The notes under the pieces are model-generated. The model worked only from the letters and a program-made list of their open reading frames with translations, was not told where the DNA came from and did not search any database. 64,000 bases of DNA. It comes from Yuukianura sp. NJ FZ-2021 (taxonomy: Eukaryota). A program made the translations under genes and the position numbers. The stretch is taken from the NCBI GenBank assembly GCA_046563655.1, contig CM102289.1, positions 5,642,001-5,706,000 of the forward strand, in the 5' to 3' direction. Shown one piece after another: positions 1 through 37,483 of this stretch. Every line of letters starts with the position of its first letter. The stretch's first letter is position 1.

Positions 1-770
1 TGGTCCTAGTTGCTCGATCTGCTCAAGGATTGCAAGAGACCAAGTCAGAACTGGACAACGCTGGAATCGCTGACATTAAAATTGTGACAGCCACGCTGGA
101 TTTAGAAAAATCCGAGACATCCGACTACCTCAACGTCATCAACACTGCGCTGATTAATACTGGAACTTCCGCGGGTAACTTTGAACATTCACTGCTGGTG
201 CATAATGCTGCAACTGTCAACGATTCCACCCTCCGAGCTATCCAAAATGACAATACTGACGTTGTTCGGGCATATATCGATTTGAATCTAAACTCAATGA
301 TTGTTCTCACGTCCCAATTTTTCAAGATTTTCCACGATGCGGAGAAACAGCGAACCTTGATTAACATCTCCGACATGTCGTCACCCTCTGGTGGACAAAT
401 AATATATAAAATGTACAGCTTGTACTGCATTTGTAAAGCCGCTCGTGAAACATTCATGAAAAGTGTTGCTGTCGAGGATCCTTCAATTGCTTGTATTAAC
501 TATTGTCCAGGAGCAGTCGATACCGATATGCTATCCTACGTAACGAAGACCACCACGGATCCCGAACTTCGACAACAGTTGGATGAAACTGTTTCTTCTG
601 GAAGAGTATTGGCTCCAATTCAAACCGTGGCAAAACTGATTGCAATTCTGGAATCTAAGAAATTTACCAAGGCAGAGCATGTGGACTACTACGACGACGA
701 GGACCCCAGTACATGTCATTACGTTGTGGGCTCATCGGTATCATCATCAGTTTCGAAAATTGAAAAATAA
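1..770 (+). CDS. Divergent sepiapterin reductase-like SDR, copy 1 (5' end lies outside the window)
   Basis: The frame is open from the window edge to TAA at 768-770 and carries YxxxK (LYCICKAAR), PGAVDTDM and HVDYYD, as in SPR. It appears identical to 2838-3607. Confidence 0.9.
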   Translation, partial: VLVARSAQGLQETKSELDNAGIADIKIVTATLDLEKSETSDYLNVINTALINTGTSAGNFEHSLLVHNAATVNDSTLRAIQNDNTDVVRAYIDLNLNSMIVLTSQFFKIFHDAEKQRTLINISDMSSPSGGQIIYKMYSLYCICKAARETFMKSVAVEDPSIACINYCPGAVDTDMLSYVTKTTTDPELRQQLDETVSSGRVLAPIQTVAKLIAILESKKFTKAEHVDYYDDEDPSTCHYVVGSSVSSSVSKIEK

Positions 771-1491
771 GTTTATTTTGAGAACAACCAAAATTTCTAT
801 CTGATAATATATAATATATAATATATCTATAAGGTCAAGACAAACAATTTAAATTAAAAAAATTCGTTTCAATTAAACAAGGCAATAGAAGCCATTTCTT
901 TTTAAGAAGTCGCCTCCCGTAAAATTTGGCAGTAGCAAACTGCTTGCATGCATTTGCATCACAACTTTGTCTTCGGAAGGCGAAAGTTGTTCAGAATTTG
1001 ACCTTTCTCATCTTCCCATCATTTGCAGTATTTTTTCAAAAATAAATCTGGAAACTCCAGCATCGTGGAGCACTATGATAAGCAGATCTCGATGAGATTT
1101 TTTTTTCTGTTTGGTACGGAGGCTGCGTTGAATCTCCTCTCAAGGTCAACTGCTCTTATTCTGCTGTCTTCTGCAACAGGTTTTCTCCGGAATACATTTT
1201 GAAAACTTTCGTCTTGCAGTTGCAGTGCTCTGACTGGTAAGAAAAACTATGTCTTTGTTAGTTAACACTGTGACGAAATAACGATACTAAAAACCTTACC
1301 GTAGTATGTAACATGTATGAGATTCCGATTCTGAGAAAACAGACAGATCGGTCGAAGTGCGAATAAGTAGAATTCAACTGCGACTTAAAGTAAACGTTAC
1401 ATATTCATAATGTATTTATATCAGTTATAAGACATTTTGTTTTACATTGTATTACATGCATAAGTATTCATTGTGTTCTTTATTTGGTTGA

Positions 1492-1995
1492 AGTAAACTT
1501 GGCGGCCAGACTGTCCCCACCCGTTTGAATTTTCGCGCTGCTTCCATTGTACCCACCCAGTGTCTCCATCGGATGGATACATTTGTCCCCACCACAACCA
1601 AAAGCAGTACGTCCACCTAGCGGCAATACAGTAACCTCCGAATTCAAGCTGGCAACGTTTTTTCTTTTTGATTTGGTAAATCCTGTTATATTTTCCCGCG
1701 CCGAAGGCGCGGCGGTAGGTTTGGTAAAGCACTCAATACTGATTAAGTCTGTAGCTTTAACTTATTCAGTTGCGCTATGTTGATTACATCTGCCATGGGT
1801 GGGCACAATGCAGCAATGCTACAACGTTGCCAGCTCGAATTCGCTAATTCCACTTCAGCCGCTAGGGGGACTCTCGGTGTACGACTGGTGGGTTATCCAT
1901 CCGATGTATCCATCCGGTGGGGACAATGGGTGGGTACAATCGAGGCAGCGCGAAATTTTGAACGGGTGGGGACAGTCTGGCCGCCCAAGTTTACT
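1492..1995. mobile_element. Foldback/MITE-like element, family A, copy 1
   Basis: AGTAAACTTGGCGGCCAGACTGTCCCCACCCGTT... at the left end is matched by ...AACGGGTGGGGACAGTCTGGCCGCCCAAGTTTACT at the right. The inverted repeat is close over ~90 bp and looser out to ~165 bp. Internal hairpin CCGCGCC-GAA-GGCGCGG; no credible ORF. Confidence 0.8.
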
Positions 1996-2023
1996 CCGAC
2001 CCTTTATTTTGTTATAGACTAAC

Positions 2024-2104
2024 ATGGAATTTTGGAATCAGCGTACGTTTTGCTTGATTACTGGAGCGTCCAGGGGAATTGGAAAATGCATGGCGGTGGA
2101 CTGA
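2024..2104 (+). pseudogene. 5' stub of the canonical SPR gene (26 codons), truncated at the duplication junction
   Basis: Encodes MEFWNQRTFCLITGASRGIGKCMAVD*. The first 77 nt are identical to 8177-8253, followed by unrelated sequence. Confidence 0.9.
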
Positions 2105-2728
2105 GGCAAATATAAAGTTGTGCAATGCAAGAAAGCAATACCGCAGGAAAAATTATTATTCTTCCATACTAAAAGAAAAACTGTAAGTGTCTTTGAATAT
2201 TCTGAATCTAGCGTGAACTCGAAAGATGTTGATTTGGTTTCGTGAGTTGCTATGCTACGTGTGATTCAAGGTCAACTAAACTACATGACCTTGCATGGAG
2301 CTCTCCAGATTCTGGAGCTGCACTCACATATTTTTCTTTGTTGCTCCGCTCACTCCCGTGTCTGAAAAAAAAACTTTTTTGTGACTATAGTCTTACCATT
2401 TTTTTCAACTTTATCAAACAAGTTAGTCTGCCTCAATTCTTGGTACTCTACCTCCAGGAAAAAATCTAGACGATATAATATTCTACTTTTAATTGCTCAA
2501 AATGTCTTCAACCTGCCTTCGGCAGGTGCAAGTTTTTCATTAAATAAAAAGACTGATAGTTCTCACAAAAAAAGTTACTCCGCTTTTTATTTAATTCGCA
2601 CACCGACCGACCTGTCGAGGTGAACGCAAGGTTTGCTGAAAGTTTTGCTTTTGAAAACTTGTGTTTAAGTATAAGTAATACTTAAAATTTTTGTAGCAAT
2701 TGATTCTATACGTTTGTCACAGGTTAAG

Positions 2729-3607
2729 ATGGAATTCTGGAATCAACGAACATTTTGTCTAATCACTGGAGCTTCCAGGGGAATTGGAAGATGTATTGCA
2801 GTGGAATTTGGGAAGAAAGTTGGAGCTGGATCCGTATTGGTCCTAGTTGCTCGATCTGCTCAAGGATTGCAAGAGACCAAGTCAGAACTGGACAACGCTG
2901 GAATCGCTGACATTAAAATTGTGACAGCCACGCTGGATTTAGAAAAATCCGAGACATCCGACTACCTCAACGTCATCAACACTGCGCTGATTAATACTGG
3001 AACTTCCGCGGGTAACTTTGAACATTCACTGCTGGTGCATAATGCTGCAACTGTCAACGATTCCACCCTCCGAGCTATCCAAAATGACAATACTGACGTT
3101 GTTCGGGCATATATCGATTTGAATCTAAACTCAATGATTGTTCTCACGTCCCAATTTTTCAAGATTTTCCACGATGCGGAGAAACAGCGAACCTTGATTA
3201 ACATCTCCGACATGTCGTCACCCTCTGGTGGACAAATAATATATAAAATGTACAGCTTGTACTGCATTTGTAAAGCCGCTCGTGAAACATTCATGAAAAG
3301 TGTTGCTGTCGAGGATCCTTCAATTGCTTGTATTAACTATTGTCCAGGAGCAGTCGATACCGATATGCTATCCTACGTAACGAAGACCACCACGGATCCC
3401 GAACTTCGACAACAGTTGGATGAAACTGTTTCTTCTGGAAGAGTATTGGCTCCAATTCAAACCGTGGCAAAACTGATTGCAATTCTGGAATCTAAGAAAT
3501 TTACCAAGGCAGAGCATGTGGACTACTACGACGACGAGGACCCCAGTACATGTCATTACGTTGTGGGCTCATCGGTATCATCATCAGTTTCGAAAATTGA
3601 AAAATAA
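2729..3607 (+). CDS. Divergent sepiapterin reductase-like SDR, copy 2 (292 aa)
   Basis: ATG at 2729 follows an acceptor-like TCACAG (2717-2722). Motifs: TGASRGIG Rossmann motif, HNAA in place of HNAG, YxxxK, HVDYYD, plus a C-terminal extension. The CDS has no introns. Confidence 0.92.
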   Translation: MEFWNQRTFCLITGASRGIGRCIAVEFGKKVGAGSVLVLVARSAQGLQETKSELDNAGIADIKIVTATLDLEKSETSDYLNVINTALINTGTSAGNFEHSLLVHNAATVNDSTLRAIQNDNTDVVRAYIDLNLNSMIVLTSQFFKIFHDAEKQRTLINISDMSSPSGGQIIYKMYSLYCICKAARETFMKSVAVEDPSIACINYCPGAVDTDMLSYVTKTTTDPELRQQLDETVSSGRVLAPIQTVAKLIAILESKKFTKAEHVDYYDDEDPSTCHYVVGSSVSSSVSKIEK

Positions 3608-4328
3608 GTTTATTTTGAGAACAACCAAAATTTCTATCTGATAATATATAATATATAATATATCTATAAGGTCAAGACAAACAATTTAAATTAAAAAAAT
3701 TCGTTTCAATTAAACAAGGCAATAGAAGCCATTTCTTTTTAAGAAGTCGCCTCCCGTAAAATTTGGCAGTAGCAAACTGCTTGCATGCATTTGCATCACA
3801 ACTTTGTCTTCGGAAGGCGAAAGTTGTTCAGAATTTGACCTTTCTCATCTTCCCATCATTTGCAGTATTTTTTCAAAAATAAATCTGGAAACTCCAGCAT
3901 CGTGGAGCACTATGATAAGCAGATCTCGATGAGATTTTTTTTTCTGTTTGGTACGGAGGCTGCGTTGAATCTCCTCTCAAGGTCAACTGCTCTTATTCTG
4001 CTGTCTTCTGCAACAGGTTTTCTCCGGAATACATTTTGAAAACTTTCGTCTTGCAGTTGCAGTGCTCTGACTGGTAAGAAAAACTATGTCTTTGTTAGTT
4101 AACACTGTGACGAAATAACGATACTAAAAACCTTACCGTAGTATGTAACATGTATGAGATTCCGATTCTGAGAAAACAGACAGATCGGTCGAAGTGCGAA
4201 TAAGTAGAATTCAACTGCGACTTAAAGTAAACGTTACATATTCATAATGTATTTATATCAGTTATAAGACATTTTGTTTTACATTGTATTACATGCATAA
4301 GTATTCATTGTGTTCTTTATTTGGTTGA

Positions 4329-4832
4329 AGTAAACTTGGCGGCCAGACTGTCCCCACCCGTTTGAATTTTCGCGCTGCTTCCATTGTACCCACCCAGTGT
4401 CTCCATCGGATGGATACATTTGTCCCCACCACAACCAAAAGCAGTACGTCCACCTAGCGGCAATACAGTAACCTCCGAATTCAAGCTGGCAACGTTTTTT
4501 CTTTTTGATTTGGTAAATCCTGTTATATTTTCCCGCGCCGAAGGCGCGGCGGTAGGTTTGGTAAAGCACTCAATACTGATTAAGTCTGTAGCTTTAACTT
4601 ATTCAGTTGCGCTATGTTGATTACATCTGCCATGGGTGGGCACAATGCAGCAATGCTACAACGTTGCCAGCTCGAATTCGCTAATTCCACTTCAGCCGCT
4701 AGGGGGACTCTCGGTGTACGACTGGTGGGTTATCCATCCGATGTATCCATCCGGTGGGGACAATGGGTGGGTACAATCGAGGCAGCGCGAAATTTTGAAC
4801 GGGTGGGGACAGTCTGGCCGCCCAAGTTTACT
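4329..4832. mobile_element. Foldback/MITE-like element, family A, copy 2
   Basis: Same sequence as 1492-1995, carried along with the tandem duplication. Confidence 0.8.
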
Positions 4833-4860
4833 CCGACCCTTTATTTTGTTATAGACTAAC

Positions 4861-4941
4861 ATGGAATTTTGGAATCAGCGTACGTTTTGCTTGATTACTG
4901 GAGCGTCCAGGGGAATTGGAAAATGCATGGCGGTGGACTGA
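4861..4941 (+). pseudogene. Second 5' stub of the canonical SPR gene
   Basis: Identical to 2024-2104. Confidence 0.9.
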
Positions 4942-5414
4942 GGCAAATATAAAGTTGTGCAATGCAAGAAAGCAATACAGCAGCAAAAATTATTATTCTT
5001 CATACTAAAAGAAAAACTGTAGTATCTTTGAATATTCTGAATCTAGCGTGAACTCGAAAGATCTTCGTTTTGCTTTGAGTTGCTGCGTGTGATTCAAGGT
5101 CAACTACAATCCTGTACTTTGTGACCTTGGAGCTCTCCAGATTCTGGAGCTGAACTCACATATTTTTCTTTGTTGCTCCATTCACTAAAGCGTCTGAAAA
5201 AAAAAACTTTTTTTGTGACTAGTCTTACCATTTTTATCAACTTTATCAAACAAGATTTACTCTGCTTTTTATTTAATTTTAATTCACACACCAACCTGTC
5301 GAGTTGAACGCAAGGTTTGCTGAAAGGTTTGATTTTGAAAACCTTTGTGTTTAAGTATAAGTAATACTTAAAATTTTTGTGGCAATTGATTCTATACGTT
5401 CGTCACAGGTTAAG

Positions 5415-6293
5415 ATGGAATTCTGGAATCAACGAACATTTTGTCTAATCACTGGAGCTTCCAGGGGAATTGGAAGATGTATTGCAGTGGAATTTGGGAA
5501 GAAAGTTGGATCTGGATCCGTATTGGTCCTAGTTGCTCGATCTGCTCAAGGTTTGCAAGAAACCAAGTCAGAACTGGACAACGCTGGAATCGCTGACATT
5601 AAAATTGTGACAGCTACGCTGGATTTAGAAAAATCCGAGACATCCGACTACCTCGACGTCATCAACACTGCGTTGATTACTACTGGAACTTCCGCGGGTA
5701 ACTTTGAACATTCACTTCTGGTGCATAATGCTGCAACTGTCAACGATTCCACCCTCCGAGCTATCCAAAATGACAATACTGACGTTGTTCGGGCATATAT
5801 CGATTTGAATCTAAACTCAATGATTGTTCTCACATCCCAATTTTTCAAGATTTTCCACGATGCGGAGAAACAGCGAACCTTGATTAACATCGCCGACATG
5901 GCGTCACCCTCTGGTGTACCAGTAATAGTTAAAATGTTAGGCTTGTACAGCATTTGTAAAGCCGCTCGTGAAACATTCATGAAAATTGTTGCTGTCGAGG
6001 ATCCTTCAATTGCTTGTATTAACTATTCTCCAGGAGTAGTCGATACCGATATGCTATCCTACGTAATGAAGACCACCACGGATTCCGAACTTCGACAACA
6101 ACTGGATGAAACTATTTCTTCTGGAAGATTATTGGCTCCCATTCAAACCGTTGCAAAACTGATTAAAATTCTGGAGTCTAAAAAATTTACGAAGGCAGAG
6201 CATGTCGACTACTACGACGACGAGGACCCCAGTAAATGCCATTTCGTGGTGGCCTCATCGGTATCATCATCAGTTTCGAAAATTGAAAAATAA
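5415..6293 (+). CDS. Divergent sepiapterin reductase-like SDR, copy 3 (292 aa)
   Basis: Intact ORF and close paralog of copy 2, with differences clustered in INIADMASPSGVPVIVKMLGLYSICK. Confidence 0.92.
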   Translation: MEFWNQRTFCLITGASRGIGRCIAVEFGKKVGSGSVLVLVARSAQGLQETKSELDNAGIADIKIVTATLDLEKSETSDYLDVINTALITTGTSAGNFEHSLLVHNAATVNDSTLRAIQNDNTDVVRAYIDLNLNSMIVLTSQFFKIFHDAEKQRTLINIADMASPSGVPVIVKMLGLYSICKAARETFMKIVAVEDPSIACINYSPGVVDTDMLSYVMKTTTDSELRQQLDETISSGRLLAPIQTVAKLIKILESKKFTKAEHVDYYDDEDPSKCHFVVASSVSSSVSKIEK

Positions 6294-6966
6294 GTTTATT
6301 TTGAGAACAACCAAAATTTCTGTCAGATCAATATAAGGTCAAGACAAACCATTTAAATAAAAAAATTCGTTTCAATTGAACAAGGCAGTAGAAGACATTT
6401 CTTTTTAAGTAGAAGTCGCCTCCCGTCATATTAAAATTTGGCAGTAGCAAACTGCTTGCTTGCATTTGCATCACAACTTTCTCTTCGGAAGGCGAAAGTT
6501 GTTCAGAATTTGATCTTTCTCATTTTCCCATCATTTGCAGTATTTTTCCAAAAATAAATCTGGAAACTCCAGCATCGTGAGCACAATGATAAGCAGATCT
6601 CGATGAGATTTTTTTTCCGTTTGGTACGGAGGCTGCGTTGAATCTCCTCTCAAGGTCAACTGCTCTTCTGCTGTCTTCTGCAACAGGTTTTCTCCGGAAT
6701 CTGAATAGGAAGATACATTTTGAAAACTTTCGTCTTGCAGTTGCAAGTGCTCTGACTGGTAAGAAAAACTATGTCTTTGTTAGTTAACACTGTGACGAAA
6801 TAACGATACTAAAAACCTTACCGTAGTATGTAACATGTCTGAGATTCCGATTCTGAGAAAACAGACAGATCGATCGATGTGCGAATAAGTAGAATTCAAC
6901 TGCGACTTAAAGTAAACGTTACATATTCATAATGTATTGACATCAGTTATAAGACATTTTGTTCTA

Positions 6967-7608
6967 CCGAGTGGAAAATAATTCCTTTCCAAGCCATGTA
7001 TAAGAACGCGACGGAGTTGGGCGGAGTTTGGATGGCGGGAACCGAAAATTTGAACGGTTGACTTTCCGCTGAGGTGACAAAAGTGTTCACATCTGGTCTT
7101 GTTTATTCTCATCCTTTGACTCATTCTTTTACTTCACTCTAGTTAATTGTTTTAACAATTAACGTCATTAATGAATCCTTTAAACCCTACTAGAGTGAGC
7201 TTTAGTGTGCAGCAGCGAGGCTTTATAGTCTAAACTTACCTCACACACACACACAGATTGTAATTTTTAATCTTTAATCTATTAGGAGTACCGCACAACT
7301 AATTGGCTTCATCAGTCCCCACAATCCTGTGAGACAAAGACAAAGACTCCTAAGGCTCGCTGCTGCACACTAAAGCTCACTCTAGTAGGGTTTAAAGGAT
7401 TCATTAATGACGTTAATTGTTAAAACAATTAACTAGAGTGAAGTAAAAGAATGAGTGAAAGGATGAGAATAAACAAGACCAGATGTGAACACTTTTGTCA
7501 CCTCAGCGGAAAGTCAACCGTTCAAATTTTCGGTTCCCGCCATCCAAACTCCGCCCAACTCCGTCGCGTTCTTATACATGGCTTGGAAAGGAATTATTTT
7601 CCACTCGG
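6967..7608. mobile_element. Young non-autonomous TA-targeting (Tc1/mariner-type) MITE/foldback with 253-bp TIRs, family B
   Basis: Structure TA|CCGAGTGGAAAATAATTCC...GGAATTATTTTCCACTCGG|TA. Arms 6967-7219 and 7356-7608 are reverse complements with one mismatch seen; the spacer is 136 bp. The element is absent from the paralogous sites near 1445 and 4282. Confidence 0.92.
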
Positions 7609-7643
7609 TACATAAGTATTTATTGTGTTCTTTATGTGGTTGA

Positions 7644-8148
7644 AGTAAACGTGGGCGGCCAGACTGTCCCCACCCGTTTGAATTTTCGCGCTGCTTCCAT
7701 TGTACCCACCCAGTGTCTCCATCGGATGGATACATTTGTCCCCACCACAACCAAAAGCAGTACGTCCACCTAGCGGCAATACAGTAACCTCCGAATTCAA
7801 GCTGGCAACGTTTTTTCTTTTTGATTTGGTAAATCCTGTTATATTTTCCCGCGCCGAAGGCGCGGCGGTAGGTTTGGTAAAGCACTCAATACTGATTAAG
7901 TCTGTAGCTTTAACTTATTCAGTTGCGCTATGTTGATTACATCTGCCATGGGTGGGCACAATGCAGCAATGCTACAACGTTGCCAGCTCGAATTCGCTAA
8001 TTCCACTTCAGCCGCTAGGGGGACTCTCGGTGTACGACTGGTGGGTTATCCATCCGATGTATCCATCCGGTGGGGACACTGGGTGGGTACAATCGAGGCA
8101 GCGCGAAATTTTGAACGGGTGGGGACAGTCTGGCCGCCCAAGTTTACT
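7644..8148. mobile_element. Foldback/MITE-like element, family A, copy 3
   Basis: Near-identical to 1492-1995. It ends ~20 nt before the acceptor-like TTATAG (8165-8170) that precedes the SPR ATG. Confidence 0.8.
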
Positions 8149-8176
8149 CCGACCCTTTATTTTGTTATAGACTAAC

Positions 8177-8989
8177 ATGGAATTTTGGAATCAGCGTACG
8201 TTTTGCTTGATTACTGGAGCGTCCAGGGGAATTGGAAAATGCATGGCGGTGGAATTTGGGAAGAAAGTTGGATCTGGATCCGTATTGGTTCTAGTTGCTC
8301 GATCTGCTCAAGGATTGCAAGAAACCAAGTCAGAACTGGACAATGCTGGAATCGCTGACATTAAAATTGTGACAGCTACGCTGGATTTAGAAAAATCCGA
8401 GACATCCGACTACCTCAATCTCATCAACACTGCGCTGATTACTACTGGAACCTCCGCCGGTGACTTTGAACATTCACTTCTGGTTCACAATGCGGGATCC
8501 ACCGGAGACGTTACACTTCGAGCTATTCAACACGACAATTCAGACATTCTTCGCGGCTACTTCGATTTAAACCTAAACTCGATGATTCTTCTAACATCCC
8601 AATTTTTTAAGATCTTCAATGATGCTGAAAAACAACGAAGCATGATTAACATCACGTCACTCGCTGGGGTGCAACCATTTAAAACATTCAGTTTGTACTG
8701 CATCGGCAAAGCCGCTCGAGAAACATTCATGAAAAATGTGGCAGCTGAAGATCCATCAATTTCGTGCATTAACTACGCTCCGGGACCAGTCGATACAGAG
8801 ATGTACTCCTATGTGTCGCAAAACACCTCGGATGAGGAAGTTCGACAGCAATTCGCTGAAACGACTTCGTCTGGAAGTGTATTAACTCCAATTCAAACCG
8901 TTTCTAAACTGATTCGAATTCTGGAATCTAAGAAATTTACAAAGGCGGAGCATGTGGACTACTACGACGATGAGCCTGCACGAAAATAA
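8177..8989 (+). CDS. SPR: Sepiapterin reductase, canonical copy (270 aa)
   Basis: TGASRGIG, HNAGSTGD, catalytic S-Y-K in INITSLAGVQPFKTFSLYCIGKAAR, YAPGPVDTEM and C-terminal HVDYYD all match the SPR family pattern. Confidence 0.93.
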   Translation: MEFWNQRTFCLITGASRGIGKCMAVEFGKKVGSGSVLVLVARSAQGLQETKSELDNAGIADIKIVTATLDLEKSETSDYLNLINTALITTGTSAGDFEHSLLVHNAGSTGDVTLRAIQHDNSDILRGYFDLNLNSMILLTSQFFKIFNDAEKQRSMINITSLAGVQPFKTFSLYCIGKAARETFMKNVAAEDPSISCINYAPGPVDTEMYSYVSQNTSDEEVRQQFAETTSSGSVLTPIQTVSKLIRILESKKFTKAEHVDYYDDEPARK

Positions 8990-9216
8990 CACTAAAATAA
9001 GTTCGATTATCGTCGAGTCTGGGCTAATTTTTTTCATTTAGCCTTCCCTTTTCTGAATTATTGCTAAAAACAATTTCCAACTACAAGCTACTTCCTTTTG
9101 GCACATAATTTCTCACTAACTCGATTGATCTTTGTACTAAACTTACCGACTAGGTATACAGCACGAAATTTCTAATGTCGTGTAACAGGTCATGGATTCA
9201 TTGCATCATAAATAAA

Positions 9217-12200
9217 TTACGATTTCAGCTTCTTCAAATCATTCAAAACCTGTTAAAAAGAATAAAGTTTTGCAAGTTTTAAGGAATTTAGGAATTGTCG
9301 TTTAAGATTTTTATGAAATCCAACCTCCAAAATTGTTCCACAACTCCACGCTTGAGCTGGACAACTTGCTTCACACGTTTTCCCGCCGCTATTTGTCAGT
9401 TCCGGCAAACTTTTCCAACTGCTAGCTTTGATGTGTTCGTAGTGACGACTCAAAATTTGACGAATCTCAGGTATGGCACATTTACCGACAAAAGTCAGAC
9501 GAGCTCGTAGGTAAAACCCCATGGGCCACAACCACTCCTATGACAATAAACGTTGTTTTTAGTTGATACAGCTTAAATTAACCCACCTTTAGTAGTTGAA
9601 TATAAATTTACCGGTCCTTGATGGTAGTTAAATCCTCCAGCGACTTTGTAGTTTGATGAATCAGTGTTATAGTAGTCTCCATCGTAATTCCAATCAGATT
9701 CATCCAACGTTTTGAGCCCAAGTTTGGAAACCAATTTTGCCTTCACAGTTTCCAGTGCTGAAACTGCATTCCCTTGATCAAAAAGTTCTGGAGCAACTGT
9801 CATTGCAACGAGGAAGTTTGGACGGAGTTGGAAATCTCCGAATCCGTTGGAAGCACCTACAGTGTCCTTGTAAATATTCCGGACGTTTACAAGTCTCTCG
9901 GTTGCTGAAGCAGATACGAAAAACTGTGATTCAAAATTCAGTTTGATTTTGGTATACCATTCACCATAGGACATGCGCACTGCAAACAAAGACATTGTCA
10001 TTAAAGTGACATTATTTGAATAAGGATTTTTTTTCCAATTGACAACTATCGAGCACAAGTAAAAAAAAACTTACAATTATCTTTTTGAACAAATCTATTC
10101 CTAAACTCTTCTGTTGTGCTCAACTTGTTCAGAACAGCGGCACATAGTCCAACGATTTCCACTGCAGCACCATCACGTGGAGTAGCTGGAATTCCTGTAA
10201 TAAAATACTTCGAAATTGAGCTTTCTGTTCACAAGGTTAAACTGTTGAAGTTTTGTTTCCTCAGGATACCTCGATTTCCTCCTGTTTCACTGCTTCCCAT
10301 TTTGTCCATCCAAGTTCCGCAGTTGAAAGCATTTCCACCATGAACGAAACCTAAATTAAAGGTCCCAATTAACATTCCTTCAATTGACAAACTTTAGCGA
10401 CCGAAAGTTACCAGTGTTCTGGTCCACATGGATATCGATGTTGAAGCCTTCGTTTTTCATATGAGCGTCGATCTGTGGTCCAGCATTTTCCTCGCGAAAT
10501 TGAATTCCTTTGAAATGCAAGTCAATTGCGAGGTGCATTACGTCTTGAAGTGGCTTTATTTCTCCATTGAGCATCTTAACTTCATTGCTCAGAATCTGGA
10601 TTCCATTTCCAACCGTATCTATGTATCTCACGATGGCATACAGCCACCACCAAGTTGCGTCACGGCAATTGTAGCGACAATTCCCTTGGTTCATCAAGTT
10701 GGGAATCAGTCCGTTTCGTAAAACGGCAGCAAAAGACAGGATGTGTTGCCTGTATTAACAAAGAAAGACAAAAGATACTTATATTACTATTATTATATTA
10801 TATTATTATATTATATTATATTATTATATGTGATTATACCTAAAACTATTTCAAATTTTCCATACCTTGCTTCTTCATGCCTTCCTGTAAGCAAAAGGAC
10901 TCCAGGTAGCGCTATGAATGTATCTCGACCCCAGCTTCGCATGTACCCAGTAGAGAAATGTGGAAGACCTAGACAGAATTATACCAGCAACAAAATGGTT
11001 CAACATTTAAAACAGTTGTGTTTTTGCATCTTTTTTAAATAAATTAAATAATTTGAGAAAAAAAATTGGACGCTACCAGCCGAAAGCGAGTAAGGGATGA
11101 ACTGCTTGTGATCTTGGGCATCTCCACATGGCAGAGCTCCTCCTTCTACTACTCCCACAAATTGCAGCGACGAGAGAGCCAGTAACCTCCATAATTCCGT
11201 TTCAGTCCGAGAATTGGTAATATCGAGGGCCGACTCTATGCAAAGATCGTAAATACGCCTGAAACACTGCTCGAAATATGTTGGGACCAAATAGTTCGGG
11301 AGGTCAGCAACTGCTCCACAAAGTTTCCCAACGTACGTTCCTAGCTTGTTGGTTTCTTCTCTCTTGAGTAGCCGATTGACAATATAATCTATTGAAAAAC
11401 GAAACATAATTTGAATACTTTGAGATTTCAAAATTTTAAACCGTAAGGGTTTACCAAGTAGCCATTTGCCCTCTCTCAAATTACAACACAGTGGATGTCC
11501 AAGGTCATTATTGAGAGAAACAGAATCTAAAATGGAAGCAATTCCTTGAAGTCCTGCATACGTCAGTTCTCCAGTATTCGGAATGGCATAAACACCTCCT
11601 TCCTCTTCTTTGCAACGATACAAAACGTAATTCAAAGACACAAAATCCAAGTCTCGAATGATCAATCCCAGATAAGGTGATGCCAAATAATTAGCCAAAT
11701 TATGAAGTGCCAAGGCTGCAGAAGGAAATGGCTGAGCTCTTAAACCCACACCAAACGTTACTCAAATGAATTTCCTTTTCAATCCAAGAAGTTCAGAACT
11801 CACTTGAAAGCTACAACGTCACCGGGTTGAAAATTCAGAAATTCCACTCGACTCAAGCGATTGCTCTTAAGGACGTCAATGAACTTGGACTCTTCAATGG
11901 CAATATCTTCTCTCCATTCTTGTTCACATTGAATTCCAGTCAAGAACGTCTCATCTTCTGCATAAGTGGCTGACCCTTGTACAAGTCTTCCTTCAAAAAC
12001 TATTCGTGTCACATGACCTTGAACTTCAATGCCTCTGATAGAGTGTGGTGGTCGCTTGAAATCCTGAGGCGGAGCATGGAAGGCTGTGTAGGCCACCAGT
12101 ATTAAAGATTCTCTGGTCTTTGGATTTCCTCTTGTGACTGATACTACATCCGCGTCCAGTTGATCAACAAATGTCTATTACAAAAAATGATTATTGTAAT

Positions 12201-13515
12201 AAAGCACTTTTCAAAAAAAAAGTTTTGAAAAGTTCGATGGTAAAGTTACCTCAGAAAATCCGTCTTGGCCAAGCAGATGATGGATCTTATTGAGTGTCTT
12301 TCGAGCACGAAGCATCCCGGAATCTAAATTCACTTCTCCAGGACCTTTAGGGGTTTTATCAAAACTTGTGTACAGTCGTGATTCGATCACAACATGAATC
12401 TGTACACAAATTCCAAATTACACAGTTTTGTAAACTTATACCCCATAAAACTAAAGTAAACAGTACAAAGGGTAATTTAATTATTGTTACTTACCTGATA
12501 CGGAACAATGTCGTCGTATCCCCGGTTGCTTCCTATGGCAAAAGCACCAAATGATACCAACGCTGCTGTTGGCAGAATGTCCTTGATGCATCTCTTTTCA
12601 ATTGGACACGGATTGTCATGTGTTTGATCAAAAAATAACGCGTCAGCCACAGCCGGCGGAACAGTATTTTCAAAAGCACCAACTGGTTTCCCACCTAATT
12701 TCAACGAACTTATGTAAAAATGTGCTTCTGTAAAACTAGCAATGACGTTTTTTTAAATAAACCGGTTGTAAACCGCGCATAAGAAATAGCTCAAGCGATA
12801 AGGCGGTATTTGTTGAAGGTAACTAAACTTCTACTCTCCCAAGGGCGAGTGGGGTGGGTTCCCCCACCTTTCCGCCCAGCTCGGGGGAGTGGGTGTGGGT
12901 TCCCCACACTTTTTCGTTCCGCACCCCAGGATGCGTGGGGTGGGTTCCCCCACTTTTTCGCTCCGCACCCCAGGAGGCGTTCCCCTGCTTGGTGGGTTCC
13001 CCGGGGGGAGAGTGGGTGGGTTCCCTGGACAAGAGAGGGTGGGTTGCCCGGAACAGAGGGGGTGTGTTCCCCGGGAGGGGGAGTTGGTTCCCCGGGGGAA
13101 GGGCGTGGGGAAGGTTTCCCCGGGGGTGTGTGTGGGTCACCCGTGGGTGTGAGGGTGGGTCACCCGGGAGTGTGACTGTGGGTCACCCGGCGCTGTGGGG
13201 TGGGGTCCTCCCCGCTTCCCAGCTAGGAGGAAGTTAATTTGAAAAAAAGTTGACCTTTGACCCGGAAGTAGGTCACTTGGGGTCATTTGATATAAACAAA
13301 AGTTGTTAGTCTCGACGAGATGAACAACTTTTGTAGAGGTCGTTTTCCGGGTTACCGGGGATGGAACCGGTTGACCTTGACCTTGCACCCGGAAGGAGTT
13401 CACCTACCGGGATAATATTCAATAGTGACCAGGTTGGGGTCATGAGGTGTTGATAGGAGAAAACCGGAATCAAATCCGTCCAGTAGTTTCTGAGATAATT
13501 GAGCTGGACAGACGG

Positions 13516-13549
<34 letters not shown>

Positions 13550-15868
13550 ATGAATCAGATTATTAATAGCTTTCGCTATTAATAAATATTTCAGATTTAA
13601 CTAAAAAATCATAAAGTATTGCACCGTATCGGAAGAGGAGACGTCCTTGCTCATGACTATTCCATGCTTGTTGGGCTTCTACACAGAAACAGATGATTCA
13701 ATTCGCTAAGCATATAAAAATTGCTAACTTTAACGGCTAATGTTCACCTTACCGCGAATGAGAACATTAATTCCCAGATGATTCACAAAAACATTGTCCT
13801 TGGCGTCGGAATTTGTAAAAAGTTCAGCTACGACTAGTAGTTCTGGACGCACGCCTCTTGCTGCGTCAATCAAGAATTCCGCTACATGTAATGGTGTAGA
13901 ATGGCAGTTGTCCAGACGCACACCGTCGAAAACGGTCGCAACGAGTTCCACGTATTGCCGCATATAGGACCATAGAAAGGGAGAATCTTCTGGTGAATGT
14001 CCATATCTGACCGAAGCGAAAGGCGAAATTAATATTAGAAATTTTGAAAAATTCAGATCGTATAAATCACCTTAGTTTTACGCTGTCGCTCCACGCAATT
14101 AGCTCTCTTCGTAGATAGACATTAGAATCCGCATCAGCAAAGTTCCTGAGTGGATCATCATTCATTACCCATCCGTTGTGAGCCATTATAAAAGGACGTT
14201 TCTCAGAGGCCACGTCGAGCATTGTTTCTGCCTGTTCATCTCCGAGGTCATGAATTTCAGTGAAATACCTTAGATCCAAAAATTCACGAGTTTTTTAAAT
14301 AGCTAAATACTTGTGAGTTTAATTGATTCATCGAGTACCTGTGTGTGAGAGGTCGGTCTTTTGTAACTTTTTGATATCTCGGGCCATTGGATTGGATTCG
14401 TTCATAGCGAATTCCAGCAATAACATTTTCGACGGCAGCATCTAAATGACTTTTTATTACGCTTTTCGTTTCTTCATTCAATTTTTCCACTTTCCATCGT
14501 GGCGTATCACTGAAACAAATAACAGTTGATTCGAAATGCTAGTGTCATATTGCGTAACACATGTTTGTGTTTCTTGTTCGGTTCGACTCACCCTCCAACC
14601 TTTGACCCATATCTGTGATAAGTGTGAATGACACTCAGTTTTTTGTCGTTCAAGCTTGAATCAAGTCGGCAGTCTACGATACTTATTAAGTAAAACTCTT
14701 CTAGGCGTAGGACTTGTATCTGTTCGTGTAAAAGACTTCGAAGATTGTTTAGATGATCTTCGGAGTTGAGAGTTGAAGGAACTCCGCGATGTTTCCATTG
14801 ATCATTGGACACCTCATTGCTCAATTTTAGAAGCAAACGATCCAGAAGATAGGCTGGAAGTAGATGTGGTGAGTTGTGTAAATTGTACGCAGCATCGGGA
14901 TGATCTCTGAGCCAAGGACTTTCATTGGCAGTATGATTCAGTACGATGTCACACAAGGACAAGATCTATCTTTCAAAGCCAAATAAGGAAAAAACTTAGT
15001 TTAGAAGAATCCGAATCACATCGGCAACCCACTTACGTTCCACTCAGTACGCATTTTCGCTATGAAGGATTTCATAGATTCCCAGCTAACGTCTCCAAAA
15101 TTTTTGTTCAGTTCGAGCTGATTCAAAATGCTGTATCCGCTTGCACTAGGTCCCAAAGCCTGTTAAAAATAATGCTTATTCATATTTCAAAATACTTCGA
15201 GAAATAAATAGGAATAACTGTAACCTGAACAGGCGTGAAATGGATGAAGTTGAATCCAGTCTCTTTCGCTACCCCAAGTCTTCCTTCCCATTCATCAAAG
15301 GGGCCCAGACACTTGGGCATATAAGTAATCATGCTGATTGCATCTAGACGTAGACTTCCGTTAGAGAGCTCCAAGTCTGGATCAACCACGATCCAGCCCC
15401 CACCAATTCGGTCACTGTTTAAAGAATATTTCAGTTTTTCTACTACGTAACTCTAACTCCCAGATTATCATAGTACTCGTGTAACTTACTCGTTCTGGTA
15501 CTTGGTAAAATAGTAACTGAACGATCCAGGACGTTCTATGCTCAGCGTGGCTGACGTATCCTCGTTATAATCTTGGTCACTGAACTGAACGGGATAGAAC
15601 GCCGTCCGTTCGAAAGCGGTTCCATGGTAGTTCGTGAACAGTTTTATTGTAATCCCGTGAAGTGCAGCATCCAATTTAAAAATTACGTTGGTGCCTACAA
15701 TAAATAAAAGCAAACAAAATAATGGACAAAAGGAAAGGACAATTAACTTTTCGTTTTAAAAATGGCTTCCTCAATGTTCAAATTACCTCGTTGAATTTTT
15801 ACAAGAAGGTCTTCACCAAACACGCCATCTTTCAAATACAATACCCTTGGCTGATGTTGCATTACCAT
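9217..15868 (-). CDS. AGL: Glycogen debranching enzyme (4-alpha-glucanotransferase / amylo-1,6-glucosidase), about 21 exons
   Basis: Start [12 protein letters not shown] at 15868; the last exon 9249-9217 encodes [10 protein letters not shown]. Motifs include [84 protein letters not shown] and QAWS. Introns are mostly short GT-AG. Confidence 0.96.
10783..10828. repeat. (ATTAT)n-type low-complexity microsatellite in an AGL intron
   Basis: Run of TATTATATTATATTAT... Confidence 0.7.
12755..13585 (+). mobile_element. Non-autonomous Helitron/Helentron-like (HINE/DINE-1-type) element with an internal G-rich repeat array, in AGL intron 12695-13625
   Basis: This intron is 931 bp, whereas most others in the gene are under ~120 bp. 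It has G-rich degenerate repeats (12845-13215), a hairpin AAAAGTTGTT..TCTCGACGAGA..AACAACTTTT, the block AAATCCGTCCAGTAGTTTCTGAGAT, a (GACA/GACG)n microsatellite (13507-13550) and a terminal hairpin TTATTAATAGC-TTTC-GCTATTAATAA (13560-13585). The 5' boundary is approximate. Confidence 0.72.
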
Positions 15869-29364: not shown

Positions 29365-32051
29365 ATGGAGTCACTTATTCCAACGGTCAACAAAATCCAT
29401 GATATTGCTATTGCAGCCAAGACGCCAGTGGGTGCCTTGCCGCAAATTGTTATACAAGGAGACCAGGTAGCGAAAGATGCAAGTTTTAGTTTCAATGTAT
29501 CTCACATGTGAATTCTCACAACGTTTTTATTTCATTTTGAACAGAGCTCGGGCAAGAGTTCTGCAATAGAAAATATTGTTGGACGATCGTTTCTACCGCG
29601 TGGAAAAGGAATTGTTACGCGATGCCCAATAATTATTCAGATGATTCCAACGACAGGCATTCACGCCTACCAGAACGGAGATGTTGAGGGGCACTCTGGG
29701 CAACAAAATGGTATCACTGGTAAGAATATCCAATTTAACTTTTTGATATTTTTTCGGGTTCCTTATGTCGAGTATTGTTTTTGAATATTTTTAACTTCAA
29801 TTTTTTGTAGTATCGGATGAGTGGGTTGAATTTCTTCATACGAACAAACGTTTTACGGATTTTAATGCTGTCAAAGACGAAATTCAAGCTGAAACTGATC
29901 GCCAATGCGGCAGAAACAAGGGAATTTCCAACACGCCGATTACTGTCAAGATTTATTCTCCAAAAGTCGTGCAACTCACCTTGGTTGACCTTCCGGGATA
30001 CACTCGGGTCAGTCAGAAATTCTCTTGTTTAATGTTTTTAGCTTTTCAAAAAAAAATTTTTTTTCTTAACTGATTAGGTTCCAGTTGGTGACCAGCCGGA
30101 AGACATTGAGAAGCAAATTCGAGAGTTGGTTCTGGAATACATTAGACAACCAAATACGATCATTCTTGCTGTGTCTCCGGCAATTGTTGATGTCCAGACG
30201 AGTGAAAGCATCAAATTGGCTCAAGAAGTTGACCCCACTGGATCACGGACTCTCTTGGTCATTACCAAGCTGGATTTGCTTTCTGAAGGGGAAACTTACA
30301 TTGAGACGTTGAGCGGTAAGGTTCTGGATGTCAAACTCGGAATTATTGGGCTCGTCAACCGATCAACTGTCGACGTTAGAACTGAGAAGACAATCGAAGC
30401 TGCGATTCGGGACGAAAAACGCTTTTTCGCTGGGCGTTACCCCAGAATTGCACATTTGCATGGAACGGAACGACTGCGCATGCGCCTTCACGAGTTGCTT
30501 GTTCAACACATCAAGTATTGCTTGGATGACATCGAGGTAGAATCAAAAATTCACATTGCATCTATAAAAATGTGCCAATCCATTAAACTTTCTTCTATAA
30601 AAATATAAATTATATATAATATATATTAGATAATATTACATAATTCTACATAATATTATAATAATGCATAATATTAACCATATTATAAAATATTATTTTG
30701 CCTTTGTAGTTGGCCATTAGTGGTATGATTGCTGAAGCTGAAATGGAACTTCGGAAACTTGGAACCGCTGGAGAGGAAATCAAGGACAAGCGTCGTGTTG
30801 TTGGGGAAGTAATTTCCCGCTACTGTGAAGATGTCAAATCGGAAATATTCGGAAGTGCTCGGAACCCACGAACGGACCGAGTTGCTGGGAAAGAACAACT
30901 TCTGCTGCTTTTCTCTGAAACTTTTCGTGAGGTTTTGGATGACATTGACCCGGTCATTTCAGCGACAGACAATGACATTGCAACTGCAATCAGTTTTTCG
31001 GGTCCAATTGAAGCAATTTTCTTCGTTCCAGATGTAAGAATCTTCAGAATTTTAAAAACTCAAAAAAATGTAACTTTTGAATTTTGTGTTAATATTTTTA
31101 ATTGCCTATTTTCTTATTAATTAAATAGGGAGCTTTTCGAACCTTGGTTAGACGCCCAATCGAAGACTTAATGGAGCCATCTCAACTCTGTGCTGCTCTT
31201 GCGCATCGTGAAATGAAGCAAATCCTCTACACATGCGCCGATGACTTGAAAAAGACTCGCTACTACTTTCCACGACTCAATGAAGCTTTGACCAACGGTG
31301 CATCGAAATTGCTCAATGAACGATTTAAAATGGCCAAGGAGATCATCGAGACTTACGTCAACATTCATGCTGACTCTGCCTTTACGACGGATCCAACCTT
31401 TTTGAAAAAAGCGCAGGAACTGAAGGCCAAGATGGACGTGTCTCCACCGCTTTTGTCCGAATGTCACGTGAGTGTTGCTGCTGCAAATGAGTCTGTCAAC
31501 AACAGTCCATTTCGAAAAGCAAAAGCTGCGAAAGGTCAAAGTTCTCAGCAGCAGGGTACGACTGACGTGGTTGAGCCTAGTAATTTGACCAATGGAAACG
31601 CTAACATCGTTGCAAAGTTGCCTTCCACGATGGCTGCACCCGCCCAATCGACTTCTACAAACGGCTCAGCAGTAGCTGAACCATTGACTATTCAGCAGCG
31701 GAAGTGTGAGATTGTGCGGGAACTGATGCGACTCTACTTCAACATTGTACGCAAATGCCACCAGGATTATGTGCCTAAAGCACTTCTTCACACTGTCATC
31801 TACTACGTTGTTGAAAATCTCAACACTGAATTGGTAAGTTCATCAATTAAAAACTCACAATTTTCTGTAAAGTCTAAAGTATTTTTTTGTGTCAAAATTT
31901 TAACTAGTCCGCTCTACATGCAAATCAAGAAGAATTGGAAAGACTGGTGGAGCCACCAGCAGACGTCCTGGAGAAACGACGCAACACTCTGCAGAATTTG
32001 GCGTCATTGAAGGAAACGGCTGAAGCTATTCCAAAGCTCCGCCTCCTCTAA
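29365..32051 (+). CDS. Divergent Drp1/DNM1L-derived dynamin-family GTPase, paralog 1 (7 exons, ~701 aa)
   Basis: Exons 29365-29466, 29545-29719, 29811-30007, 30078-30536, 30710-31033, 31129-31833 and 31908-32051 splice into one open frame. G1 GDQSSGKSS, G2 VTRCP, G3 DLPG, G4 TKLD; Drp1-type [18 protein letters not shown] and [11 protein letters not shown]; low-complexity insert [20 protein letters not shown]. No PH or PRD domain. Confidence 0.92.
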
Positions 32052-33229: not shown

Positions 33230-34234
33230 AATATTATGCAGTCTAATATCTGCAATTTATCTTTCACTTTTTAACTAAAATACTTATTTTCCACTATTTG
33301 TCGTAAATGTTTATTACGTATTTTCAAGAAAATATTACAGAAAACACTTACCCAAGTCTTTGCCAAAAGTTTATCTCTAAAAGTTTTCGCTTGCTTCTCC
33401 TTCACTTTCTTTTTCAAAAAAAAATTGCACGAGATAGCTTAATCGTTTTAATGATTACTATTTTGGACAACATGAATAGCCTTGAGAGTATCTTTGTTTA
33501 TTTTGCGGCATAACATGTACTTTGAATTTGATTTGACTAACATCAAACGTTACTCTGTTCAAATTCATCAAAAAGGAGCTACACTGCGTTATAGAATATT
33601 TTGTGTAAATTGAACGATGGAACGCAATTGGGACACCTAACAGCTAAATCATGTTTTCTAATGCGCTAATTCTAAAATGAAGAAATAATTTTTCGGTAAT
33701 ATCCATTTTTAATCGGTTTTTAGAAATTAAAAACTGTTTCAAACTGCCGAGATTCTTACGGCTAATATTCCAAAAAAAAAACGTTTCATTTGCAGTGGTC
33801 AAAATCGGATGTTTAGCTAAAACTAATTTTTAAATTACAATGTTAAACCGGATATTTTTGGCGTGCGTTGAAATGATATTGTCCTGGGTCGTCAAATTCA
33901 TTCTGCTTGCTCGTAGTTGTTCTTTCATTGCTTGTGTAAATTTGATAAATTTTGTCTTATCTTCAAAGCAAATTTATTTTGCAAATTTCTTCTGAAATTG
34001 TGGGATTTACTTTATGAATAGCCGCCGCCGACTTTCTTTTGTTTGCCAATTCAAAAGCAAATAGTTCGGATCCTTGAGTTTACACTTTTGAACATTCTTT
34101 CCAGTTTCTGGCTTGCCCTAAATTAGACGTCCATGTCCGAGAAGGAATAATTTCAAAAACTTACTGCAATTTCCTGTTGTTAGAAAGTTAGCATATTGTC
34201 ATTTTCCTACTTGCAATACCTTTAGAGAACCAAT

Positions 34235-37200: not shown

Positions 37201-37483
37201 TTCCGAAGGCATTGCTCCACACTGTCATCTACTACGTTGTTGAAAATCTGCACACTGAGTTGGTAAGTTTACAAATTCAAAAAATATTATTATTTTTAAA
37301 TCTGTGTAAAATATTTTTCGGTTTTAACATTTCGAATAGTCTGCTCTTCACGCAAATCAAGAAGATTTGGACAAATTGGTAGAGCCGCCTGCAGATGTTT
37401 TGGAAAAGCGGCAAAATACTTTGCAGAATTTGCAGTCCTTGAGGGAAGCGGCTGAAGCAATTCCGAAGCTCCGCCTACTTTAG
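34235..37483 (+). CDS. Divergent Drp1/DNM1L-derived dynamin-family GTPase, paralog 2 (7 exons, ~679 aa)
   Basis: Exons 34235-34336, 34413-34566, 34652-34851, 34911-35369, 35495-35818, 36606-37262 and 37340-37483, with the same intron positions as paralog 1. Motifs [22 protein letters not shown]; ends AIPKLRLL*. Confidence 0.92.
36210..36527. mobile_element. Foldback/MITE-like long inverted repeat in intron 5 of dynamin paralog 2
   Basis: CTTCTGGTGCATTTCCTGTATGATTGGTTAGGCGCTCAAAAAACTACGACCACACTTTTCGC... is matched by its reverse complement ending ...TACAGGAGATGCACCAGAAG, with arms of ~135 bp. The host intron is 787 bp against 95 bp in paralog 1. Confidence 0.8.

Follow-up and report, generated by a model that had tools for sequence, protein, structure and literature searches.

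Four intronless open reading frames (ORFs) resembling the sepiapterin reductase (SPR) gene lie in tandem at positions 1-9000 of a 64,000-nucleotide stretch of the Yuukianura sp. NJ FZ-2021 genome (contig CM102289.1 of assembly GCA_046563655.1, positions 5,642,001 to 5,706,000). This whole stretch is called the window here, and positions are counted from its first letter. The four ORFs are on the plus strand, about 2.7-2.8 kb apart. The last one (c4) encodes a canonical SPR, and the other three (c1, c2, and c3) encode derived SPR paralogs in which the active-site loop has been remodelled. It seems somewhat probable that the derived copies are functional SPR paralogs restricted to this lineage, in which the substrate pocket has been remodelled. 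They probably differ from the parent in substrate preference and do not form a new enzyme family.

To judge from the sequence, the array is a lineage-specific tandem set of intronless SPR genes of the short-chain dehydrogenase/reductase (SDR) superfamily. The c2 gene (2729..3607) and the c3 gene (5415..6293) each encode 292 amino acids and are 92% identical. The window start truncates the 5′ end of c1 (3..770), of which 255 codons are visible, and tblastn gave 100% identity between c1 and c2. The c4 gene (8177..8989) encodes 270 amino acids including Ser161, Tyr174, and Lys178, with a Ser-to-Tyr spacing of 13, and the derived copies share 79% protein identity with it. The Pfam profile adh_short (PF00106, cutoff 26.6 bits) matches c2, c3, and c4 with 76.8, 68.0, and 90.6 bits. 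The best solved relatives of c2 are human and mouse SPR (1Z6Z and 1SEP; 34% identity and an E-value of 1e-39 by phmmer, 1.2e-39 for the human protein). The same two proteins were the top Foldseek matches of the AlphaFold2 (AF2) model of c2, with target-normalised TM-scores of 0.86-0.91. In a protein atlas, the clusters nearest to c2 are sepiapterin reductases, and the closest SPR proteins among 5.8 billion sequences are 46-54% identical to c2. The first-pass annotation of this DNA had proposed a candidate new reductase family; the identity to c4 and the solved relatives do not support that proposal.

Every copy retains TGASRGIG, YxxxK, and HVDYYD, in agreement with the annotation, which had listed TGxxxGIG, YxxxK, and HVDYYD as kept. 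The Tyr-x3-Lys pair is Tyr178/Lys182 in c2 and c3 and Tyr174/Lys178 in c4. Like animal SPR, the derived copies have TGxxxGxG, Arg42, YxxxK, the PG motif, and the C-terminal Asp. Unlike animal SPR, they have a three-plus-one residue insertion at the catalytic Ser, with a spacing to Tyr of 14 or 17 instead of 13, an accelerated evolutionary rate, and a C-terminal extension of 22 residues (3539..3604 in c2 and 6225-6290 in c3). The extension is Ser-rich. In the DNA alignment, an indel adjoining the ancestral stop codon shifts the frame to a later stop. The tail is predicted to be disordered, the last three blocks of the c2 model having predicted local distance difference test (pLDDT) scores of 57, 48, and 46.

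Remodelling at the catalytic serine

The remodelled loop comprises codons 160-179, which lie at 3206..3265 in c2, where Asp161 is at 3209-3211, Ser164 at 3218-3220, and Tyr178 at 3260-3262, and at 5892..5951 in c3. The c2 loop sequence occurs identically in c1 at 369-428. The loop sequences that the annotation had quoted for the copies are exact. It had also stated that the loop is four residues longer and that an Asp takes the place of the catalytic Ser in the alignment. The four additional residues are present, but they form a single block only in protein alignments: a single four-residue gap, which places Asp161 on the Ser column, was the choice of MAFFT and phmmer. The codons align differently. 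In this segment, c4 reads ATC ACG TCA CTC GCT GGG GTG CAA CCA TTT AAA, and c2 reads ATC TCC GAC ATG TCG TCA CCC TCT GGT GGA CAA ATA ATA TAT AAA. When a three-codon insertion is placed after Ile159 and a one-codon insertion after Gln169, 24 of 33 nucleotides match c4, in c2 and c3 alike. The single four-codon gap leaves 11 (c2) or 12 (c3) matches out of 33. A DNA aligner also gave the three-plus-one pattern. When the codons are aligned in this way, TCA, which encodes the catalytic Ser of c4, is kept as Ser164 in both c2 and c3, 14 residues before Tyr178, and it is preceded by a 9-nt in-frame insertion (3206..3214, Ser-Asp-Met in c2; 5892-5900, Ala-Asp-Met in c3). The better match of the DNA suggests that the ancestral Ser is retained, by homology, as Ser164. 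Loss of the catalytic Ser in the derived copies is not established.

A profile hidden Markov model (HMM) was built from 163 family members with c2 and c3 excluded. It treated "dms" of c2 as an insertion and put Ser164 on the Ser state, while for c3 it put Asp on the Ser state instead; the posterior probabilities were low in both cases. A 9-nt tandem duplication may have created the inserted tripeptide, whose codons match those of Asn-Ile-Thr at 6 of 9 nucleotides. Residues 160 and 163 covary, being Ser and Ser in c2 (TCC and TCG, at 3206-3208 and 3215-3217) and Ala and Ala in c3 (GCC and GCG, at 5892-5894 and 5901-5903). The T/G difference occupies matching positions in the two halves of the putative duplication. 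Asp161, Met162, Ser164, Pro165, Ser166, and Gly167 are common to c2 and c3.

The AF2 models have mean pLDDT scores of 92.2 (c2) and 96.8 (c4). Strand β5 ends at residue 159 in both models, and helix αF begins at Ser176 in c2 and at Ser172 in c4. The extra residues of c2 were modelled as a small hairpin with bridges at residues 163 and 169. The topology of this hairpin, which is predicted at low confidence, favors a location of Asp161 near the catalytic position.

How exceptional is this loop in the SPR family? The 12 nearest proteins and the best 150 cluster representatives from an HMMER scan of 1.84 billion proteins were sampled, and 158 of these 162 relatives cover the site. The Ser column is occupied by Ser in 147 of them, Ala in five, Thr in three, Gly and Cys in one each, and a gap in one, and never by Asp. 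The distance from this column to Tyr is 13 in 153 of the 158 relatives and 17 in none, whereas Tyr178 of the derived copies is 14 residues from Ser164 and 17 from Asp161. On alignment, the derived loop is unique among the 158 sampled relatives. The family alignment has 21 positions with a conservation of 90-100%, and c2 and c3 match 20 of them, the sole exception being the Ser column. The kept positions include the Gly-rich motif, Arg42, Asp70, Asn105, Asn132, Tyr178, Lys182, Pro206, Gly207, and Thr211. The TGxxxGxG positions Thr13, Gly14, Gly18, and Gly20 are conserved in 145-157 of the 158 relatives. Asp265, in the C-terminal HVDYYD, is present in c2, c3, and c4; of 148 relatives, 125 have Asp in this column, which is below the 90% threshold. 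The annotation had also pointed to the changes of NAG to NAA and of PGP to PGA or PGV. These changes do exist, but they recur across the relatives (NAA in 39 of 160, PGA or PGV in 17 of 151) and are thus ordinary family variants. I also examined a metagenome scan performed with generic SDR motif patterns. None of the 80 loci kept was informative on the derived loop; they are at most 44% identical over the best segment (at most 32% except for one 61-residue match) and appear to be bacterial-type SDRs.

Divergence and history of the copies

Between 3206-3265 of c2 and 5892-5951 of c3, there are 11 nucleotide differences in nine codons, which result in nine amino-acid changes and no synonymous change, exactly as the annotation had counted. 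Its remark that the N-terminal half is nearly unchanged was also borne out: the first 158 codons have three replacement and six synonymous differences, and codons 106-158 have none and one. In codons 159-184, there are 11 replacement and no synonymous differences, with a replacement divergence (dN) of 0.206. Codons 185-272 have nine and eight, with a synonymous divergence (dS) of 0.146. Over the whole gene, 26 replacement and 16 synonymous differences were counted (dN 0.040, dS 0.082, and dN/dS, or ω, 0.49 by the Nei-Gojobori method). The loop has 61 of the 669.5 replacement sites but 11 of the 26 replacements, a clustering far in excess of chance (binomial p=7.6e-6). The ratio of replacement to synonymous differences is 11:0 within the loop and 15:16 outside it (Fisher p=0.0027). 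The proposal in the annotation depended on dN/dS not being uniform across the gene. In the comparison of c2 and c3, the loop does differ from the rest, and heterogeneity of the rate along the gene is shown by these counts. By the same counts, no other part of the protein changes as fast as the loop or is under so little constraint. Outside the loop, ω between c2 and c3 is 0.29 (p=0.0007 against neutrality), and ω between c2 and c4 is 0.20. Purifying selection outside the loop implies that c2 and c3 encoded useful proteins while they diverged.

The replacement divergence of the loop (11 of 61 sites) was compared with several neutral proxies. It exceeds the gene-wide synonymous divergence (16/206.5, p=0.022) and the divergence of the downstream non-coding sequence (20/646, p=2e-5), and it is not significantly above that of the upstream non-coding sequence (about 50/454, p=0.09). 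The repeat unit is a gene-conversion mosaic in which the neutral divergence varies from about 0 to about 15% by region, so the proper neutral yardstick for the loop is uncertain. The nine amino-acid differences of the loop were polarised with c4 as the reference in the DNA-based alignment, and three of them were ambiguous. At least three changes occurred in the c2 lineage (Gly168, Tyr172, and Tyr175) and at least five in the c3 lineage (Pro169, Val172, Leu175, Gly176, and Ser179). At the positions six and three residues before the catalytic Tyr, Phe of c4 has been replaced in both lineages, a suggestive pattern. The transition-to-transversion ratio is 2:9 in the loop and 15:16 elsewhere, and the difference is not significant (p=0.15). 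I also considered whether the cluster of 11 differences was imported by gene conversion from a divergent paralog outside the view. A donor with a replacement-to-synonymous ratio of about 1:1, as in the rest of the gene, would have imported synonymous differences too, while 11:0 was seen. Given this pattern, conversion may have occurred and would shift the signal to the donor.

The dS between c4 and the derived copies is 0.66 for the whole gene, about 0.33 for codons 1-105, and more than 1.3 for codons 106-184. These values indicate that the duplication which separated them is old, and the low dS in the 5′ third suggests gene conversion there. In a Tajima-type test with the eight nearest outgroup proteins, 21 lineage-unique substitutions were assigned to the c2/c3 stem and five to c4 (p=0.0017); six of the 21 stem changes are in the loop, where the alignment is ambiguous, as were another 14 sites. 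By this test, the derived lineage evolved faster than c4 after the duplication. Several of the stem changes fall in segments 108-112, 161-167, 174, 181, and 214-220.

A record of the amplification remains in the spacers. It was revealed by tblastn that the first 77 nt of c4 (8177-8253) recur identically at 2024..2100 and at 4861-4937 on the plus strand, followed by a stop codon. These relics carry Lys22 and Met24, which are diagnostic of c4, and sit downstream of c1 and c2, beyond a repeat. They show that the amplified unit spanned from upstream of the derived gene to codon 26 of c4, and they reflect a coherent biological history and not an accident of assembly. The repeat lies between each derived gene and the c4-type start (1501..2023, about 4338-4860, and about 7654-8176; families D4 and D5). 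At least 300 nt of it are 100% identical across all three units, and its word depth ranges from thousands to about 49,586 (run X2). ARAGORN found no tRNA genes in the repeat region. Positions 1-2141 are 100% identical to 2838-4978, so that c1 and its spacer equal c2 and its spacer for 2141 nt from the start of the 2837-nt unit; beyond this, the identity of the two units falls sharply to about 90%, with indels.

The sequence shows the following history. A single duplication of the canonical SPR gene (c4) founded the derived lineage, which then gained the 9-nt and 3-nt in-frame insertions at the junction of strand β5 and the catalytic Ser. It also gained further substitutions in pocket segments and the 22-residue tail, the latter via the indel beside the old stop codon. 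Segmental duplication then amplified the derived gene along with its spacer and 77 nt from the start of c4, which yielded c3, c2, and c1. The function discussed below, by comparison, is inferred.

Support for the derived copies in sequencing reads was assessed with Logan contigs. Four of the DNA runs come from a single sample, and a fifth (X5) comes from a different study. In run X2, a contig spans 3140-3341, including the whole c2 loop, with one differing letter. A contig of run X5, which is labelled as another organism, covers 138-788, including the c1 loop, with 20 differing letters (97% identity), and thus a derived-type copy is present in an independent data set. The bins over the c3 loop show depth in X1, X2, and X4, and among the differing letters listed, none falls at 5892-5951. 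The annotation had named consensus errors in the loop as a possible fault of its proposal; such an error is unlikely for c2 and possible for c3. In contigs of X1, X2, and X4, which are from one sample, 6964 is directly followed by 7609, and 644 nt of the spacer ahead of c4 are absent. This absence may be a presence/absence variant or may come from a second copy without that piece.

Proposed function of the derived copies

If the derived copies are functional paralogs with a remodelled pocket, their products would remain NADPH-binding, dimer-type SDR reductases, and the reshaped pocket would most likely accept a carbonyl substrate other or broader than that of canonical SPR. The altered parts would be the pocket entrance and the partner of the proton relay. 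If Ser164 serves as this partner, ordinary Ser-Tyr-Lys chemistry would be maintained with a bulged strand end; if Asp161 serves, an Asp relay as in pteridine reductase 1 (PTR1) would operate. As described in a review (PMC7520308), Ser158, Tyr171, and Lys175 of SPR act in proton transfer, Asp257 (of the human protein) hydrogen-bonds inhibitors, and the D257H mutation abolishes sepiapterin reduction. Since the Tyr-Lys pair and the pterin-anchoring Asp are intact in the derived copies, their products are taken as still being reductases. In the same review, the activity of the Y171V+S158D double mutant is undetectable, and it is implied that low activity remains in single mutants at Ser158 or Tyr171. 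Therefore, an Asp in the place of the Ser need not kill the enzyme and may weaken carbonyl reduction. The annotation had viewed the intact duplicates as neofunctionalised. That they are intact, constrained, and faster-evolving and have a unique loop all fits neofunctionalisation of the pocket.

Several points weigh against a functional remodelled pocket. The pLDDT is 67 at residues 161-170 of c2 and 98 in the corresponding loop block of c4. If Asp161 does replace the Ser, the activity of the derived copies may be low. The Tyr, Val, and Leu found at the two doubly changed loop positions are all common in the relatives, so these positions seem to be naturally variable. The chance of finding no synonymous change among 11 is 0.067 under neutrality, and the replacement divergence of the loop does not significantly exceed that of synonymous sites in the adjoining 3′ half (10/75, p=0.30). 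The 100% identity of c1 and c2 could come from an assembly duplication, or else from a very recent duplication or conversion. The contig support of the c3 loop is at the level of depth bins and less direct than that of c2. As for the diversifying selection claimed in the annotation, the heterogeneity of ω stands, but ω above 1 is unproven, as the p values range from 0.02 to 0.30 depending on the neutral proxy. Positive selection on the loop is plausible from these counts. Its chief alternative is a relaxation of constraint confined to the loop, and either would give the replacement-only pattern.

Such a relaxation is part of the strongest rival explanation, which I regard as unlikely but serious, that the derived copies are catalytically impaired pseudoenzymes. 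In this case, the insertion would have displaced or replaced the Ser, and the proteins would be retained because they bind NADPH, form dimers with canonical SPR, or serve some other non-catalytic purpose, while the loop drifts. The comparison of the loop dN with the dS of the adjacent 3′ half is what ω of about 1 predicts, the model confidence collapses in the loop only, and the Ser column is nearly invariant in the other members of the family. The low residual activity of triad mutants and the non-enzymatic roles of SPR discussed in the review (PMC7520308) are also in line with impairment. Nevertheless, Tyr178, Lys182, Asn132, and the substrate-anchoring Asp265 are kept, and a purely structural role would not need them. 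The c2 and c3 loops differ without indels or synonymous changes, and the six residues common to both, from Asp161 to Gly167, suggest that part of the new loop is conserved. Moreover, the 10 of 158 relatives with Ala, Thr, Gly, or Cys at the Ser column indicate that loss of the Ser is tolerated in the family.

Another explanation takes Asp161 as a member of an Asp-Tyr-Lys triad that passes a proton from solvent to Tyr in the manner of PTR1. Such an enzyme would reduce a pterin ring (C=N) or a substrate needing an acidic relay, and not the side-chain carbonyls of sepiapterin. The precedent is PTR1, another SDR. Its triad consists of Asp181-Tyr194-Lys198 in the Leishmania major enzyme and of Asp161-Tyr174-Lys178 in that of Trypanosoma brucei, and the Asp takes a proton from solvent and hands it to Tyr (PMC8996148, PMC1618733). 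Like these trypanosomatid enzymes, the derived copies would be pterin-acting SDRs with Asp for Ser in the triad, the equivalence of Asp161 being putative. The protein aligners, and the profile HMM in the case of c3, set Asp161 on the Ser column, and the common end of β5 in the two models gives residue 161 an equal index past the strand. The retained pterin-anchoring Asp of SPR is also consistent with this chemistry. On the other hand, the spacing from Asp to Tyr is 17 here and 13 in PTR1, the homology of the DNA places the Asp within the inserted tripeptide and the ancestral Ser three residues on, and the confidence of the loop model is low. PTR1 is tetrameric and belongs to a different SDR lineage, and common descent beyond the SDR fold is not expected. 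I therefore find this explanation rather improbable. The same doubt applies to its extension, in which a natural Asp-Tyr-Lys center and a specificity loop diversified among the tandem copies would provide new pterin-ring or other C=N/C=O reductase activities absent from canonical animal SPR.

It is very improbable that the copies are nothing functional, either young duplicates on the way to becoming pseudogenes or products of faulty assembly or consensus calling where repeats abound: the identity of c1 and c2 over 2141 nt could result from mis-assembly and the array sits inside a very high-copy repeat, but every ORF is intact, purifying selection is seen between c2 and c3 outside the loop as well as between the derived copies and c4 (ω of about 0.2 at a dS of about 0.66), independently built contigs from several runs cover the regions, the second study has a derived-type contig, and the 77-nt relics give a coherent duplication history.

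Two known systems may be compared with paralogs having a remodelled pocket. In the SPR of Chlorobium tepidum, the loop length and a C-terminal extension near the active site alter substrate binding and stereospecificity, according to the review (PMC7520308). That bacterial enzyme has a shorter loop, whereas the loop is longer here and the change is at the catalytic Ser itself. Retention of SPR duplicates in an animal lineage resembles the case of teleost spra and sprb; these are attributed to whole-genome duplication in two abstracts (PMC1890551, PMC2839281), unlike the local tandem copies with a rebuilt loop described here. In a literature search on SPR paralogs and duplications, only the teleost duplicates were found, and a lengthened catalytic loop was not described.

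If the derived copies are active, they would represent a natural re-engineering of a classical SDR active site beside the unchanged parent gene. Within a few kilobases, a micro-duplication would have added codons in frame at the Ser, and the loop would then have changed by replacements only, which would provide a compact natural experiment on SDR specificity and on what the triad Ser contributes. Inactive copies would add an SDR example to the conserved pseudoenzymes. In either case, calls of a lost catalytic residue made from protein alignments can be artefacts of gap placement, which homology at the codon level resolves.

Other features of the window

The next gene after the array is a multi-exon glycogen debranching enzyme gene on the minus strand (9253-14965). 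Its exon at 11003-11761 shows 30-38% identity to animal and fungal enzymes, with 32-38% for those of a nematode, a crustacean, a sponge, and a brachiopod. A G+C-rich patch with Pro/Gly-rich open frames on both strands is present at 12783-13237, within the range of the exon ORFs of this gene. The GC content of the 12-14 kb bin is 0.464, compared with about 0.34-0.42 elsewhere.

Two tandem multi-exon genes on the plus strand (30078-32010 and 34226-37382) are paralogous to each other, and their exon ORFs are highly similar. They may resemble genes of dynamin-family GTPases. Further downstream, at 46999-47397, is a minisatellite-like tandem array, and each of its strands has long, repetitive ORFs, which occupy several frames.

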